DNA of 64,000 nt. Source: Eledone cirrhosa. Its lineage: Eukaryota. Below, piece after piece: positions 18,656-63,465 of this stretch (position 1 is its first letter; the number at the start of each line of letters is the position of its first letter). The position numbers and the translations under genes are program-made. Below the pieces are notes generated by a model. It was not told the DNA's origin and searched no databases. It saw only the letters and a list, made by a program, of their open reading frames with translations. The stretch covers positions 29,884,001 through 29,948,000 of the forward strand of contig OZ024761.1 in NCBI GenBank assembly GCA_964016885.1, in the 5' to 3' direction.

Positions 18656-18821
18656 ATGTCCGCCGGTCTGAGTGTTCGTCATGTTTGGCGAGGATTAATT
18701 TTAGCAAACTGTCGGAACTTGACGACCTTACAGCATAGAAACTTATCTGAGGAACGTAATCCTCAACAAGAAACACATTTCGGTTTCCAGACTATCCCAG
18801 AAAGTGAAAAAGAGAGTAAAG
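18656..18821 (+). CDS. COQ5: COQ5 ubiquinone-biosynthesis C-methyltransferase, exon 1 of 7
   Basis: Mitochondrial-presequence-like N-terminus followed by conserved ETHFGFQT; donor AAG|GTATTT, phase 1. Confidence 0.93.
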
Positions 18822-19046
18822 GTATTTGTTTGAAGTATATCGTTCTTTCTTCATTTAATAATCTTTATCTACGTACATATGTAAATAAACAAATACATAT
18901 GTGCACCGAAATCCCAAGTACCTTCAGAGGTTGACTTGTGAGAAGGGACTGTCCTGAGTTTCGTCCGTTTTTCCGTAGTCTTCGCCCTCTTGTTAAAATT
19001 AATTTCATAAGATCTTAGCCACTCGGAACATTCTTATAGATATATA

Positions 19047-19215
19047 CAGGGCCTCTAAGAGAAATTTTGCAAGACGGTACAAGAGCCCTTTAGGGTCCGA
19101 AGCGAAGCAGGCAAAGATTTTTCTTAGAAGGGATGTTGCATAGTTGCTGTGGGGCCTTCTTAGATCTTGGGCTCCGGAATAACGTACCGGCAGGACGCCC
19201 GTCTCATGGACCCTG
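19047..19215. mobile_element. Possible hAT-like MITE
   Basis: CAGGGCCTCTAAGAGA...TCTCATGGACCCTG imperfect TIRs; no clear target duplication. Confidence 0.35.
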
Positions 19216-19856
19216 TTTTTATATATATATATATAAAAGAAAATGATGATGTTTCGTTTACATGTATTTAGATGTTTAATATGTATTGACCTGCCGGTAC
19301 GTTATTCCGCGCGTTTCGCAGAGGATTGTCTCAAGGTCACCTAGACTGGTGAATCACTAGTCTGAGGAGCTGATCGTTACTGGAGTCGGGTAGGGTCCAT
19401 AATTTCTATGCATGACCTTGAGCTAATCCTCTGTGAAGATCGCATAACAGGTTGATACACAATAAAAATCTAAATCATGTAAACGAAACTTCATCGTTTT
19501 TCTTTATATATACACTCTGCCTATGCATCGAGGGCTCATATTGGTCCCATCACCAGATATTCACTGAATCACATGCTATATATATATATATATATATCAT
19601 CATCATTGTTTAACGTCTATCTTCCACGCTAGCATGGGTTTAGACTGGAATTGTCCCACTTGAGGCAAGGTTGGTTGTCTTGCTCGTATAGGACTGTCTG
19701 GCAGGTTTTCTACGTCTGGATGCCCTTCCTAACACCAACCACGTTTACAGTGTGTGTATATATATATATACACACATATATATCATCATTGTTGATATGT
19801 TTTGATTCCTCACATTTGTTTATATATATATACATATATATATATATATATATATA

Positions 19857-20049
19857 TAGGAAAAGAGTCAGAACCCCGACGGCAGAGCTCAAGCCATTTC
19901 GACAACTATTTCTGGACTCAGAAATAACTGTTGAAACGGCTTGAGCTCTGCCGTCGGGGTTCTGACTCTTTTCCTATTACCCACCGGTAATTACACGAGT
20001 ACTCTGGTCTGTTATGGTCCACCTGGTTCCTTACCACACTTCCTTCGTT
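19857..20049. mobile_element. Hairpin element with about 55-bp arms plus tail, in (TA)n
   Basis: AAAAGAGTCAGAACCCCGACGGCAGAGCTCAAGCC...GGCTTGAGCTCTGCCGTCGGGGTTCTGACTCTTTT; a homologous copy in opposite orientation at about 45325-45520. Confidence 0.7.
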
Positions 20050-20139
20050 ATATATATATAGTGTATGTGATATATATAAACAAATGTGAGGAATCAAAAC
20101 ATATCAACAATGATGATATATATATATATATATATATGT

Positions 20140-20607
20140 AAAGTTATATTTAAAATTGTTGGGTTACAACTAGTAAATATTTATAACTGATATAAAAGCA
20201 CTCGACAAATACTTGGAGTATATTTACAATATTAAATAAATGGAAAACTATATTTATAAAACCATATTTATTTCATTATATATATTTCGGGGATATCATA
20301 TTAACAATATGCTATGCCTTCATCAGACAAAATACAATATAAACAGTTTTATAGATAAATATATTCGACATACCGTAATAAACATCAACTTCATTTGAAG
20401 AGGTTCACTCTAGCAGTGCTAGAGTGAACCTCTTCAAATGAAGTTGATGTTTATTACGGTATGTCGAATATATTTATCTATAAAACTGTTTATATTGTAT
20501 TTTGTCTGATGAAGGCATAGCATATTGTTAATATGATATCCCCGAAATATATATAATGAAATAAATATGGTTTTATAAATATAGTTTTCCATTTATTTAA
20601 TATTGTA
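20140..20607. mobile_element. Fold-back element with two hammerhead-like cores (probable Penelope-like pseudo-LTR derivative), copy 1, in COQ5 intron 1
   Basis: Perfect palindrome 20225-20607 (191-bp arms, 1-nt centre at 20416) plus an unpaired tail 20140-20224; flanked by (TA)n; CTGATGA at 20506 and GAAA at 20544, mirrored on the minus strand. Confidence 0.8.
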
Positions 20608-20682
20608 TATATATATATATATATATGCATGTGAATGGCTTTATAGTTAAGATGTTCAGCTCATGGCAGTGATTTCAAATCA

Positions 20683-60175: not shown

Positions 60176-60336
60176 AGATGCTGAAGATGCTGTGCGAGAA
60201 AGAAATGGTTACAACTACGACAACTATAAATTGAGGGTTGAATTTCCACGTGGAACTGGTCCTGGAGGGCGTGGCAGAGGTCGAGGAAAAGGTGGACCCC
60301 CTTCACGTCGGTCCCAGTACAGAGTATTTGTCTCAG
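60176..60336 (+). CDS. SRSF1: SRSF1/9-like exon (RRM1 end, Gly/Arg linker)
   Basis: [27 protein letters not shown]...[13 protein letters not shown]; donor G|GTGAGT. Confidence 0.95.
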
Positions 60337-60742
60337 GTGAGTAACCCAATTTTTCTCGGGGGGGGGGGGGGGGTGAATTTTTTTAATGAAATATGCAGCT
60401 CACATCTGTTTGTCCTGGAGAGGAGATGCCAGGTTTTAAAAAGTGCCCTTGAAACGCCATATGTTAATATGGTGCTTCTATGACTCCCTGAGGAGTTATG
60501 GGTCCATGCATTTACAGCTTATGCCTGTTCAGGTTTAGCTGACATCTCATGAAGTTGTGTCTCATAGGGGGCTTGTTGGATATTTTAATGATAGGGATGC
60601 CTAGCCCTATGATACACCTAAACCAAGATTAGTTATGACTCCCAGATTTTCAATATTTCTTCACTATTTCATAACCATATGGTTAGATGTTCATATTAAA
60701 GCCATGCAGTTTTCTGTTCAATTCTACTGTTATTTCTTTAAG

Positions 60743-60915
60743 GTTTACCAAAATCTGGCAGCTGGCAAGACTTGAAGGATCACATGCGGGAAGCTGGGGA
60801 TGTTTGTTATGCTGATGTCTTCAACGATGGCTCTGGAATGGTAGAATTTCTGAGATACGAGGATATGCGTTACGCTGTGAGGTATCTGAATGAATCTAAA
60901 TTCCGATCACATGAG
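60743..60915 (+). CDS. SRSF1: SRSF1/9-like exon (pseudo-RRM2)
   Basis: [26 protein letters not shown]...KFRSHE, containing the diagnostic SWQDLKD heptapeptide. Confidence 0.96.
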
Positions 60916-60959
60916 GTAAACGTTTATTTATTATTATTATTTTATGGGCAGTGAGGGTA

Positions 60960-61590
60960 GGGGATGGGCAGTATTGGTAGGGCGTCATACATGCTTCATG
61001 GCGTATAGTTACTTCCCTTTACGTTCTGAGTTCAAATCCTGCCGAGGTTAGCTTTGCTTTCCTCCTTTTGGGGGTCAATAAAATAAAGTACCAGTAACCC
61101 ACTGGGGTCGATTTAATCAACTTGCTCCTCTCCCCAAAAATGTTGGCCTTGTGCCTAAATCAGAAACCATTATTATTATTTTATGGATTAGTTAGGGCGG
61201 TGGATTGGCAGTATCGGTAGAGGGTCGGACGGCCCTTTATGATCTGAGTTCAAATACCGCCGAGGTTAACTTTGCCTTTCATCCTTACGGGGTCGATAAA
61301 ATAAAGTACCTGTAATGCACTGGGATAATTACTGGCCTTGTGCCAAAAGTAGAAACCATTATTATTATTTAATGGATTAGCAGAATCATTAGAGTGTTGG
61401 AGAAAATGCTTTGTGATATTTGTTTCAGCTCTTTGTTTCGGATATTTGTGTTCTGAGTTCAAATCCCACCGAGCTCAACTTTGCCTTTCATCTTTCCAGG
61501 GGCAATAAAATTAAGCCCCAGTTATATACTAGGGTAGATGTAATCAACTTCTCCCTCCTCCTCACAGATTGCTGAAATTAAAAAGCCTTA
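60960..61590 (+). mobile_element. SINE family B tandem copies in SRSF intron
   Basis: Three successive copies of the same core motif; further copies at about 9330-9515(-), 41877-42066(+), 56815-56922(+), 59900-60120(+). Confidence 0.8.
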
Positions 61591-63279
61591 TTTTAAAGAC
61601 AGTGGATTGGCAGAGTCGTTGGAGCGCCGGACAAACTCTTTGCAGTATTTATTATCTCGCTTTACATTCTGTCACATTTATCTTTTCATCGTTTTGTGTT
61701 CAGTAAAATGAAATACCAGTAATGTACTGGCGTTCATAGAATCGACTACCACCAACCAAGGAGTGTTAAGTTTTAATAAATATATTTACTGGTTTCAATT
61801 TCTTCAGAATATAATCATATCCATATTATTATATTTTGCTCACCCATTCATTATTCATCTAAATTGACTATATATATAGTCTCAAGCCACTATATATCTC
61901 TCTCTCTATCATCTTAAGCCACTATCTCTCTCGTTCTCTCTTTCTCTCATTTCAAGCCACTATAAATTTCTCTCTCTCTCTTTAAGCCATTATATATATA
62001 TATATTTTTTTATGGCTTTCTGTGTGGCAATATATATATTTTTTAACGCTAAATTATTAATAACAACTAGCAGAAAAACTAGCATGTGTAGTGTGCATGT
62101 TGTTATTATATGCAAGTATATATACATGTAGATATGATACGTCAAATAAAATCGTAATTGACAATATACACAGAAATTGAACGAAGACTGCGTTACACTG
62201 TCTTATGTAATCAGTAACGTAATCCATGATACATTAAAAAAAGACGATATTATATATAAATTGCATTAGGAGAAAATTAATATCTTTATTTAAATGATTG
62301 CCATCGGAAGTGTTGACATTTGAAAATTTTAAAGAAGTGAATCTTTTAATAAGTAATAAAATATATTTAATGAACAGCCACGAAATTTAGATAAATTATG
62401 TAATATTCATTCATTATTTATTCAAAGTAATTCAAATTATTTTACTAATGGGATAAAAAAAATTATAAACCTTACGCAATCCTGCGCTTCTTACTTTATT
62501 ATAGTTTAGATATACCATATTTGCTGGCCTATTGGACGCCCCTTAGCATAAGATTATATTTTACGTTATATTTTGACATTTATAGGCATTTTTATGGACC
62601 ACATCCAATATTCGCGTTTTTCACTCTTCGCTGGTGCTCTAGGAACAAAACCCCTTTGAATACCGGGGGGGGGGGGGGACTACTGTACTAGTAATGTACT
62701 GGGATTGATGTAATCGACTCTCCCTCCTCTAAAATTGTTGGCCTTGTGCCTAAAGTAGAAACAATTGAAAGGTTGTGAGTTCAATTCTTGGACCGGGTGA
62801 TGTGTTGTTTCCTCGAGCAAGACACTTTATTTCACATTGCTCCAGTTTACTCAGCTGTAGAAATGAGATGATAGGACTGGGGTCCCTATCATTCCACTGC
62901 AAAGTGGACGTGTAGGTGCCACGGCAAAAAAGCACCCAGCCCACACTGTAAAGTGGACGTGTAGGTACCACGGCAAAAAAGCACCCAGCCCACACTGTAA
63001 ATGAGGTTGGTGTTAGGAAGAGCATCCAGCTGTAGAAATCAAGCCAGAATCAGTTCCTGTATGAGCAAGACAAGGTCACCCGACCTGGACACTGCCCACA
63101 ACAGGACAACCCGTCTAACCCATACTAGCGTAGAAGAAGAGACGTAAAACGGTGATGATGATGATGATAATCTCAAGCCATTACATATCTCACACTCTCT
63201 CTCTTCTCTAACCACTCTCTCTTTTTCTCTCTTTCATCTCGCGTCACTATATGTATATATATATCTCTTTCTCTCCAAG

Positions 63280-63465
63280 GGTGAACAAGCCTATGTCCGT
63301 GTGAAACAAGACTATCGAGGACCTTCCCGTTCCAGAAGCCGAAGTTACTCTCCTCGCCGTACTCGAGATTCGCCACGCTACACACCAATGAGGCTGCGCT
63401 CGCGCTCTCCCTCAATCTCCAGATCTATCTCCAGATCTTACTCTCGTTCCAGATCACCATTCTGA
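63280..63465 (+). CDS. SRSF1: SRSF1/9-like terminal exon (RS domain)
   Basis: GEQAYVRVKQDYRGPSRSRSRSYSPRR...SRSRSPF-TGA; AAG acceptor after a CT-rich tract. Confidence 0.94.
   Translation, partial: GEQAYVRVKQDYRGPSRSRSRSYSPRRTRDSPRYTPMRLRSRSPSISRSISRSYSRSRSPF

Follow-up and report, generated by a model that had tools for sequence, protein, structure and literature searches.

Human chromosome 12 carries the gene run GATC, TRIAP1, SRSF9, DYNLL1, COQ5, RNF10, POP5 (PMC11061283), and a pig study gives the same run minus TRIAP1 (PMC10734178). A 64,000-nucleotide stretch of Eledone cirrhosa DNA (contig OZ024761.1; C22:29,884,001-29,948,000), hereafter the window, holds COQ5, DYNLL (LC8) and an SRSF1/9 gene, and the arrangement of these three genes is the subject of the present analysis. 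Strands for the human genes are available from a table in which genes are numbered and 8655 alone is named; we take 8683, 8655 and 84274 to be SRSF9, DYNLL1 and COQ5, and 6426 and 140735 to be SRSF1 and DYNLL2. In this supplement table of 2006, 8683 (-), 8655 (+) and 84274 (-) are located on chromosome 12, and 6426 (-) and 140735 (+) on chromosome 17; the chicken orthologs of the 6426-140735 pair and of 8655-84274 (DYNLL1-COQ5) are consecutive, and fugu has consecutive identifiers for the 6426-140735 pair (PMC1487180). A single 17q22 deletion takes in both SRSF1 and DYNLL2 (PMC13106306).

Conserved neighbourhoods of this kind have been catalogued. Nearly 600 ancient microsyntenic pairs are known, with the 5'-5' orientation enriched (Irimia et al. 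2012, PMC3514665); the DYNLL-SRSF pair is not named in the main text of that paper and may be among the nearly 600 listed. Of the metazoan microsyntenies, Euprymna keeps 275 and a scallop 216 (Schmidbaur et al. 2022, PMC9023564). In the same study, supplementary file 4 contains the Lottia block 4571, which spans 38 kb and 8 genes, including 75951 (SRSF), 203845 and 178337 (COQ5). It belongs to the network LOTGI 4571 / BRAFL 8790 / SACKO 1715 / MIZYE 322 / CAPTE 11707, with Capitella linked via amphioxus, and the human, cnidarian and sponge members of that network may owe their links to other genes. Within the accessible part of this table, no human row is matched by the Ensembl numbers taken for the human genes, and no paper was found under the Lottia number 203845. 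The supplements of PMC8851819 contain no COQ5, DYNLL or SRSF9 gene row among the rows listed, and the accessible text of PMC13508932 does not name the COQ5, DYNLL or SRSF genes. No paper on COQ5-DYNLL-SRSF linkage was found in a literature of which subscription papers were mostly out of reach.

Gene order and orientation in the window

The window contains COQ5 on the plus strand, DYNLL on the minus strand and SRSF1/9 on the plus strand, all three intact (Table 1). Gene models and a Pfam scan of 270 open frames bear out the preliminary description of this DNA, which had read this order from the letters and seen no other protein gene in between. It had also equated the block with the human one in order and orientation, and had named SRSF1-DYNLL2 at 17q22 as a second head-to-head pair; the published gene order (PMC11061283), strands (PMC1487180) and deletion (PMC13106306) agree with both statements. 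The scan comprised 124 and 146 frames between the genes, read from stop to stop, with a length of at least 35 or 42 aa and with low-complexity frames excluded. One match in the 270 frames exceeds the curated cut-off, a reverse-transcriptase fragment, and three further matches in the two gaps all fall below it. No hidden protein gene was detected between or upstream of the three genes in 124, 146 and 136 frames searched against Pfam, a search that very short exons could escape.

The rough chance of both adjacencies occurring with the right strands is about 5e-7 per anchor gene, assuming that an ancestral linkage group comprised about 1,000 genes and that there were two LC8 copies; chance is therefore not a plausible source of the three-gene match to the human order. 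In all probability, the COQ5-DYNLL-SRSF1/9 arrangement was inherited from the bilaterian ancestor.

The COQ5 protein shares 81% identity with the Octopus protein and 76% with that of Argonauta. Judged by protein identity, the window comes from an octopod. PF01209 is matched by all three COQ5 exons tested, one of them weakly, and exon 2 has one match only in the genome, indicating a single copy. The SRSF1/9 protein shows 97% identity to a protein of Octopus vulgaris, whose best solved relative is SRSF1 (E 1e-83), far ahead of SRSF6, SRSF3 and SRSF7. The window protein consists of two RNA-recognition motifs (RRMs) and an arginine/serine (RS) tail, has SRSF1 as its best match and carries the motif SWQDLKD, which we take to be diagnostic; these are the features of the SRSF1/9 subfamily. 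The exon encoding RRM2 again has one genome match only, indicating that SRSF is single copy. A spliced contig spans 55118-55451, 57642-57826, 60170-60334, 60741-60913 and 63278-63900. In a tree of 27 hand-picked rows, from which vertebrate SRSF1 and SRSF9 are absent, the window gene lies inside the coleoid clade with support of 100/99.

SR genes carry poison exons. At a donor-like site in SRSF intron 2 (58490-58663), all five candidate cassette exons that end there contain in-frame stops, as in a poison exon, and one low-depth contig runs unspliced over 58533-58732 of the same intron.

Linkage in other lineages

Linkage elsewhere was assessed by proxy, through the scaffold lengths and accession numbers of the best 120 of 746 COQ5 matches and the best 120 of 1,234 SRSF matches, plus cluster members; this sample is skewed to close relatives. 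Records for both COQ5 and SRSF1/9 are present in 13 species, with a scaffold length for both in 11. The lengths are equal in 8 of the 11 (Argonauta, O. vulgaris, Lottia, Liolophura, Ridgeia, Priapulus, a Branchiostoma hybrid and Zootermopsis), and small shared scaffolds occur in Ridgeia (319 kb), Priapulus (399 kb), Zootermopsis (468 kb) and Lottia (3.2 Mb). From COQ5 to SRSF the accession numbers advance by 2 in Lottia (ESO95309/95311) and Ridgeia (KAK2174989/991), leaving exactly one accession between, which fits one gene. The gap is 3 in Argonauta, 8 in O. bimaculoides, 10 in Zootermopsis, 119 in B. belcheri and 1,271 in Liolophura. No record identifying LC8 as the middle gene of Lottia or Ridgeia is found among the best 120 of 4,103 LC8 matches, which are mostly from vertebrates, or in the cluster listings, and exact look-ups of both octopus LC8s found nothing. 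In Gigantopelta and Mya, the scaffolds with LC8-like records differ in length from those with COQ5, an uninformative result as these genomes may hold further LC8 copies.

Metagenome loci provide a direct view of the interval. Among 80 loci kept of 516 confirmed, three extend at least 6 kb upstream of SRSF (L036, L033 and L095). The compact, arthropod-like contig L036 carries dynactin p22 (+), an MT-A70/METTL3-like gene (+), LC8 (-) and SRSF1 (+) within 6.2 kb (L036:964-7090). Here DYNLL and SRSF1 stand head to head with their ATGs 1.15 kb apart, the MT-A70 gene occupies the expected place of COQ5, and the LC8 groups weakly with insect LC8s (84/85).

Besides octopus, the full trio is present in human, while parts of it are seen as DYNLL1-COQ5 in chicken, COQ5 with SRSF in the eight species above and DYNLL with SRSF in L036. 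DYNLL and SRSF, members of unrelated families, are adjacent in octopus, human (twice), chicken, one fish and the arthropod-like contig, and their orientation is 5'-5' in octopus, human (twice) and L036; such linkage of unrelated genes across distant lineages is what defines the ancient pairs (CAMPs). The preliminary description had proposed an ancestral bilaterian trio. Linkage through intermediate lineages (COQ5/SRSF in those species, the pair in L036) upholds the ancestry, whereas it is DYNLL-SRSF, more than the trio, that appears to form the stable unit, because the pair is kept in both human paralogous regions, in octopus and in the arthropod-like contig, and COQ5 can leave.

The DYNLL-SRSF interval

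The 5' end of the SRSF transcript is located 12.3 kb from the DYNLL start codon. A signal resembling a 3' splice site stands a few dozen bases upstream of the DYNLL ATG, and an acceptor-like signal shortly before the ATG, combined with an intronless coding sequence, is also found in the second LC8 copy of the genome and in the L036 LC8. Because this splice-acceptor-like signal precedes the ATG, DYNLL would be expected to have a candidate non-coding first exon further upstream, spliced over a long intron in the 5' untranslated region (UTR). The interval contains eight minus-strand AG/GTRAR sites, two of which fall inside promoter-like sequence (~52478 and 55097). The X-box half-sites around the former (52.5-52.8 kb) match weakly and may be chance occurrences. 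The latter, some 20 nt beyond the point where the SRSF contig begins, comes after the only YY1-like core of the window (55107), a motif counted twice in 120 kb of other sequence. Human DYNLL1 may have a distal exon beside the SRSF9 promoter, in a two-promoter layout. It is doubtful, though conceivable, that a single promoter region has served both LC8 and SRSF1/9 ever since the bilaterian ancestor, with a non-coding LC8 first exon at the promoter of the SR protein (55.1 kb) plus a proximal promoter (52.4 kb). If true, such sharing would tie LC8, a dimerisation hub, to a core splicing factor, and would explain the survival of the pair through two vertebrate genome duplications and coleoid reshuffling.

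The second LC8 copy and the human flanking genes

A second close LC8 copy (85%) is located 11 Mb away at C22:18702001-18702267 (L001:5001-5267), and the genome holds two distant matches in addition. Compared with 10 reference LC8s, the window copy agrees in 75-79 of 89 residues and the paralog in 79-82 of 89, which makes the window copy the more divergent one. This divergence suggests a relaxed or shifted function, as judged from the protein sequences. Several substitutions of the window LC8 lie in residues 19-26 and at 49, and its end branch measures 0.21 versus 0.057 in the paralog. The block itself marks which of the two octopus LC8 genes probably sits at the ancestral locus.

The preliminary description had raised the question whether GATC, TRIAP1, RNF10 or POP5 flank the window. 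TRIAP1 is found at C22:23.7 Mb, 6.2 Mb from the block, and an exon of the POP5/RPP14 family at C22:18.9 Mb, 11 Mb from it; the genome search for GatC gave no match, which is not evidence of absence, and RNF10 was not searched for directly. The second LC8 copy is 237 kb from the POP5/RPP14-family exon, and TRIAP1 is also on C22 (C22:18.70-18.94 Mb and 23.72 Mb, respectively). The second LC8, the POP5/RPP14-family exon and TRIAP1 are likely remnants of the same ancestral linkage group.

Other features of the window and its flanks

The COQ5-DYNLL gap contains a tRNA gene and a broken retroelement fragment (Table 1). An AT-rich element resembling a miniature inverted-repeat transposable element (MITE), with a long internal inverted repeat, is present by eye in copies at 20180-20600, 29260-29710 and 31620-32100. 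Degenerate tandem repeats, also recognized by eye, occupy 25930-26460 in COQ5 intron 6 and 28260-28970 downstream of COQ5. The region 3970-4370 is CpG-richer and holds a 109-aa open frame without Pfam match, possibly an exon of some further gene. The flanks were scanned with 10 hand-picked frames, each of at least 70 aa. The nearest gene found upstream is a single open frame of 963 aa with an SH3 domain (L003:2733-5621, -), about 33 kb from COQ5. Downstream, alkaline phosphatase exons (L009:6320-6544, L011:3018-3302 and L011:6246-6557, -) lie about 27-47 kb beyond SRSF and are convergent with it.

Table 1 Coordinates of the genes and candidate elements in the window.
Feature	Position	Strand	Description
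COQ5, coenzyme Q methyltransferase	18656..26911	+	7 exons, GT-AG introns, ATG 18656, stop 26911, 319 aa
COQ5 exons	18656-18821, 20873-21022, 22019(or 22022)-22252, 23029-23138, 23845-23933, 24492-24603, 26810-26911	+	
DYNLL/LC8 coding sequence	42540..42809	-	Intronless, 89 aa, PF01221 E 1e-41
SRSF1/9 pro-ortholog	55118..63465	+	Transcript from 55118 or earlier; ATG 55443, stop 63465, 5 exons, 241 aa
SRSF1/9 coding exons	55443-55451, 57636-57832, 60176-60336, 60743-60915, 63280-63465	+	
Candidate DYNLL proximal promoter/first exon (putative)	52380..52800	-	GC box, CCAAT box, X-box half-sites, donor-like site ~52478; motifs only
Candidate distal first-exon end of DYNLL (putative)	55097..55117	-	YY1-like core 55107, then donor-like site
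tRNA-Gly(TCC)	30424..30495	-	COQ5-DYNLL gap
Broken retroelement fragment with reverse-transcriptase domain, resembling a long interspersed nuclear element (LINE)	33905..35036	-	RVT_1 E 1.5e-12 on 33905-34276; rest to 35036 by eye

Discussion

The explanation we prefer, at a probability of roughly 0.5, combines ancestry with shared or interleaved 5' control DNA that holds the DYNLL-SRSF pair together, COQ5 being a passenger. In this mechanism, the non-coding first exon of DYNLL would lie near 52.4 kb, beside the SRSF promoter (55.1 kb), or in both places. If either donor site were used, most of the 12.3-kb interval would be DYNLL intron, and two promoters would lie within 3 kb of each other or be shared. 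A break in most of the interval would then be purged, because it would cut a transcription unit or its promoter. The constraint would be leaky and lost in some lineages. The preliminary description had taken the arrangement to point to a shared regulatory constraint in the DYNLL-SRSF interval; this proposal is tentative, as the hints for it come from sequence and are accompanied by counter-examples.

Several observations weigh against the preferred explanation. Within the interval, the candidate exon at 55.1 kb would bring an upstream open reading frame ending ahead of the DYNLL ATG. No 5' exon of DYNLL could be mapped, as none is among the contig pieces listed, which is uninformative either way; by blastn, the interval shows no non-coding similarity to L036 or L095, both too distant for the negative to count. 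The human coding sequences are 26.8 kb (chromosome 12 pair) and 80 kb (chromosome 17 pair) apart, the list of head-to-head genes under 1 kb from 2006 contains neither human DYNLL-SRSF pair, and the promoter partner of human DYNLL1 is an antisense cDNA 204 bp away (PMC1487180). In Pogonophryne albipinna (P0436, two locus tags), a predicted 302-aa SRSF1-DYNLL2 fusion implies the same strand for both genes and is probably a merged model of same-strand neighbours. The scaffolds of COQ5 and SRSF differ in 3 of 11 species (Gonioctena, Thelazia and O. sinensis, the last with a 51-kb fragment), and neither LC8 nor COQ5 is found in the at least 6 kb read upstream of SRSF in L033 and L095, two of the three loci. 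Where the accession gap is 1 (Priapulus, the Branchiostoma hybrid and O. vulgaris), the numbering has no room for DYNLL, which may result from non-positional numbering or a missing model; the accession-based cases carry no orientation, nor the identity of the middle gene in Lottia and Ridgeia. The presence of a second LC8 copy on the same chromosome belongs here too, as does the LC8 tree (22 rows), which has support on 0 of 18 branches and does not tell which paralog is ancestral.

The main alternative is neutral persistence, in which the ancestral order is unconstrained and the short ancestral intervals have met no breakpoint yet in these lineages; we regard it as a serious possibility, if not a probable one. 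Hundreds of ancient blocks persist in cephalopods (275, PMC9023564), the Lottia block packs its 8 genes into 38 kb, L033, Gonioctena, Thelazia and Pogonophryne have the link broken or in another orientation, and the long human spacing and the absence of blastn-detectable conserved non-coding sequence against L036 and L095 fit as well. The survival of the block, which the preliminary description had noted in spite of the heavy rearrangement of cephalopod genomes, is unsurprising, because 275 microsyntenies are kept in Euprymna versus 216 in the scallop (PMC9023564). What speaks against neutrality is that both adjacencies stayed while the other human neighbours are scattered along the octopus chromosome, and that DYNLL-SRSF is still present in both of the human paralogous regions, as well as in the arthropod-like contig from which COQ5 has gone.

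Regulation of the whole trio, either through co-regulation of all three genes or through enhancers of one gene inside the introns of another, in the manner of a genomic regulatory block (GRB), would account for the proximity of COQ5 to SRSF in 8 of the 11 species and for consecutive DYNLL1-COQ5 in chicken, but we consider it improbable. COQ5 is replaced in L036 and lies 10 accessions off in Zootermopsis, the genes encode a methyltransferase, LC8 and an SR protein, and no developmental transcription factor of the kind expected in a genomic regulatory block was found. None of COQ5, DYNLL and SRSF1/9 is a GRB-type developmental regulator. Least credible of all is secondary assembly, whereby a later, lineage-specific LC8 duplicate came to lie between COQ5 and SRSF genes that were linked, or the resemblance to human arose by convergence. 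Two LC8 paralogs on the chromosome, a window copy that is the more divergent and has an intronless coding sequence, and an LC8 tree without supported branches are compatible with it. The paralog and the L036 LC8, however, likewise lack introns and have an acceptor directly ahead of the ATG. It is very improbable that a copy would have arrived independently at the position and on the strand seen in human and L036, and the accession numbers of Lottia and Ridgeia fit one gene between COQ5 and SRSF. Relocation of paralogs had been named at the outset as a possible refutation by phylogeny; the window SRSF falls within the coleoid clade, and the LC8 tree gives no answer for LC8. The block offers a small, well-bounded test of whether shared promoters or chance keep housekeeping genes together as neighbours.

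Comparison with known systems

Human 12q24.31 (SRSF9-DYNLL1-COQ5) has exactly the order and orientation of the octopus window, and 17q22 (SRSF1-DYNLL2) is head-to-head like the octopus DYNLL-SRSF pair, with COQ5 next to only one of the two human paralogous regions. Octopus has one SRSF1/9 gene and human two; the octopus COQ5-DYNLL gap holds a tRNA gene, unlike 12q24.31, and, as far as tested, the octopus block does not adjoin GATC, TRIAP1, RNF10 or POP5, which flank the human one, RNF10 without a direct search.

The microsynteny definition of Schmidbaur et al. calls for at least three orthologous genes with at most five intervening, and the window and the human region share three with zero intervening protein genes found. 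It also asks for the same block in at least six distant species, of which human has the full trio and the others listed above have parts of it. In the accessible table of that study, the Lottia block shares SRSF1/9 and COQ5 with octopus and the amphioxus block holds its SRSF1/9 (XP_002611807), but the network rows are unnamed, include no squid or octopus member, and the Lottia block has 8 genes versus three in the octopus window (PMC9023564). Like the pairs of Irimia et al., DYNLL and SRSF are unrelated and linked across deuterostomes and protostomes, and they are 5'-5' in octopus, human and L036, though not in the Pogonophryne gene models; the co-regulated type among those pairs is marked by correlated expression, transcription starts less than 1 kb apart and conservation of intergenic sequence, whereas the octopus pair is known from gene order and sequence (PMC3514665). 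The bidirectional HSP60-HSP10 pair is likewise ancient and head-to-head, but there a common function and a proven promoter of less than 1 kb unite the two genes, whereas DYNLL and SRSF are functionally unrelated and their promoter is a candidate (PMC3514665). In conclusion, the octopus block is a new instance of a well-known class of ancient microsynteny, partly catalogued already; its modest novelty lies in the retention of the block in octopods and in the evidence for DYNLL-SRSF1/9 as its core.

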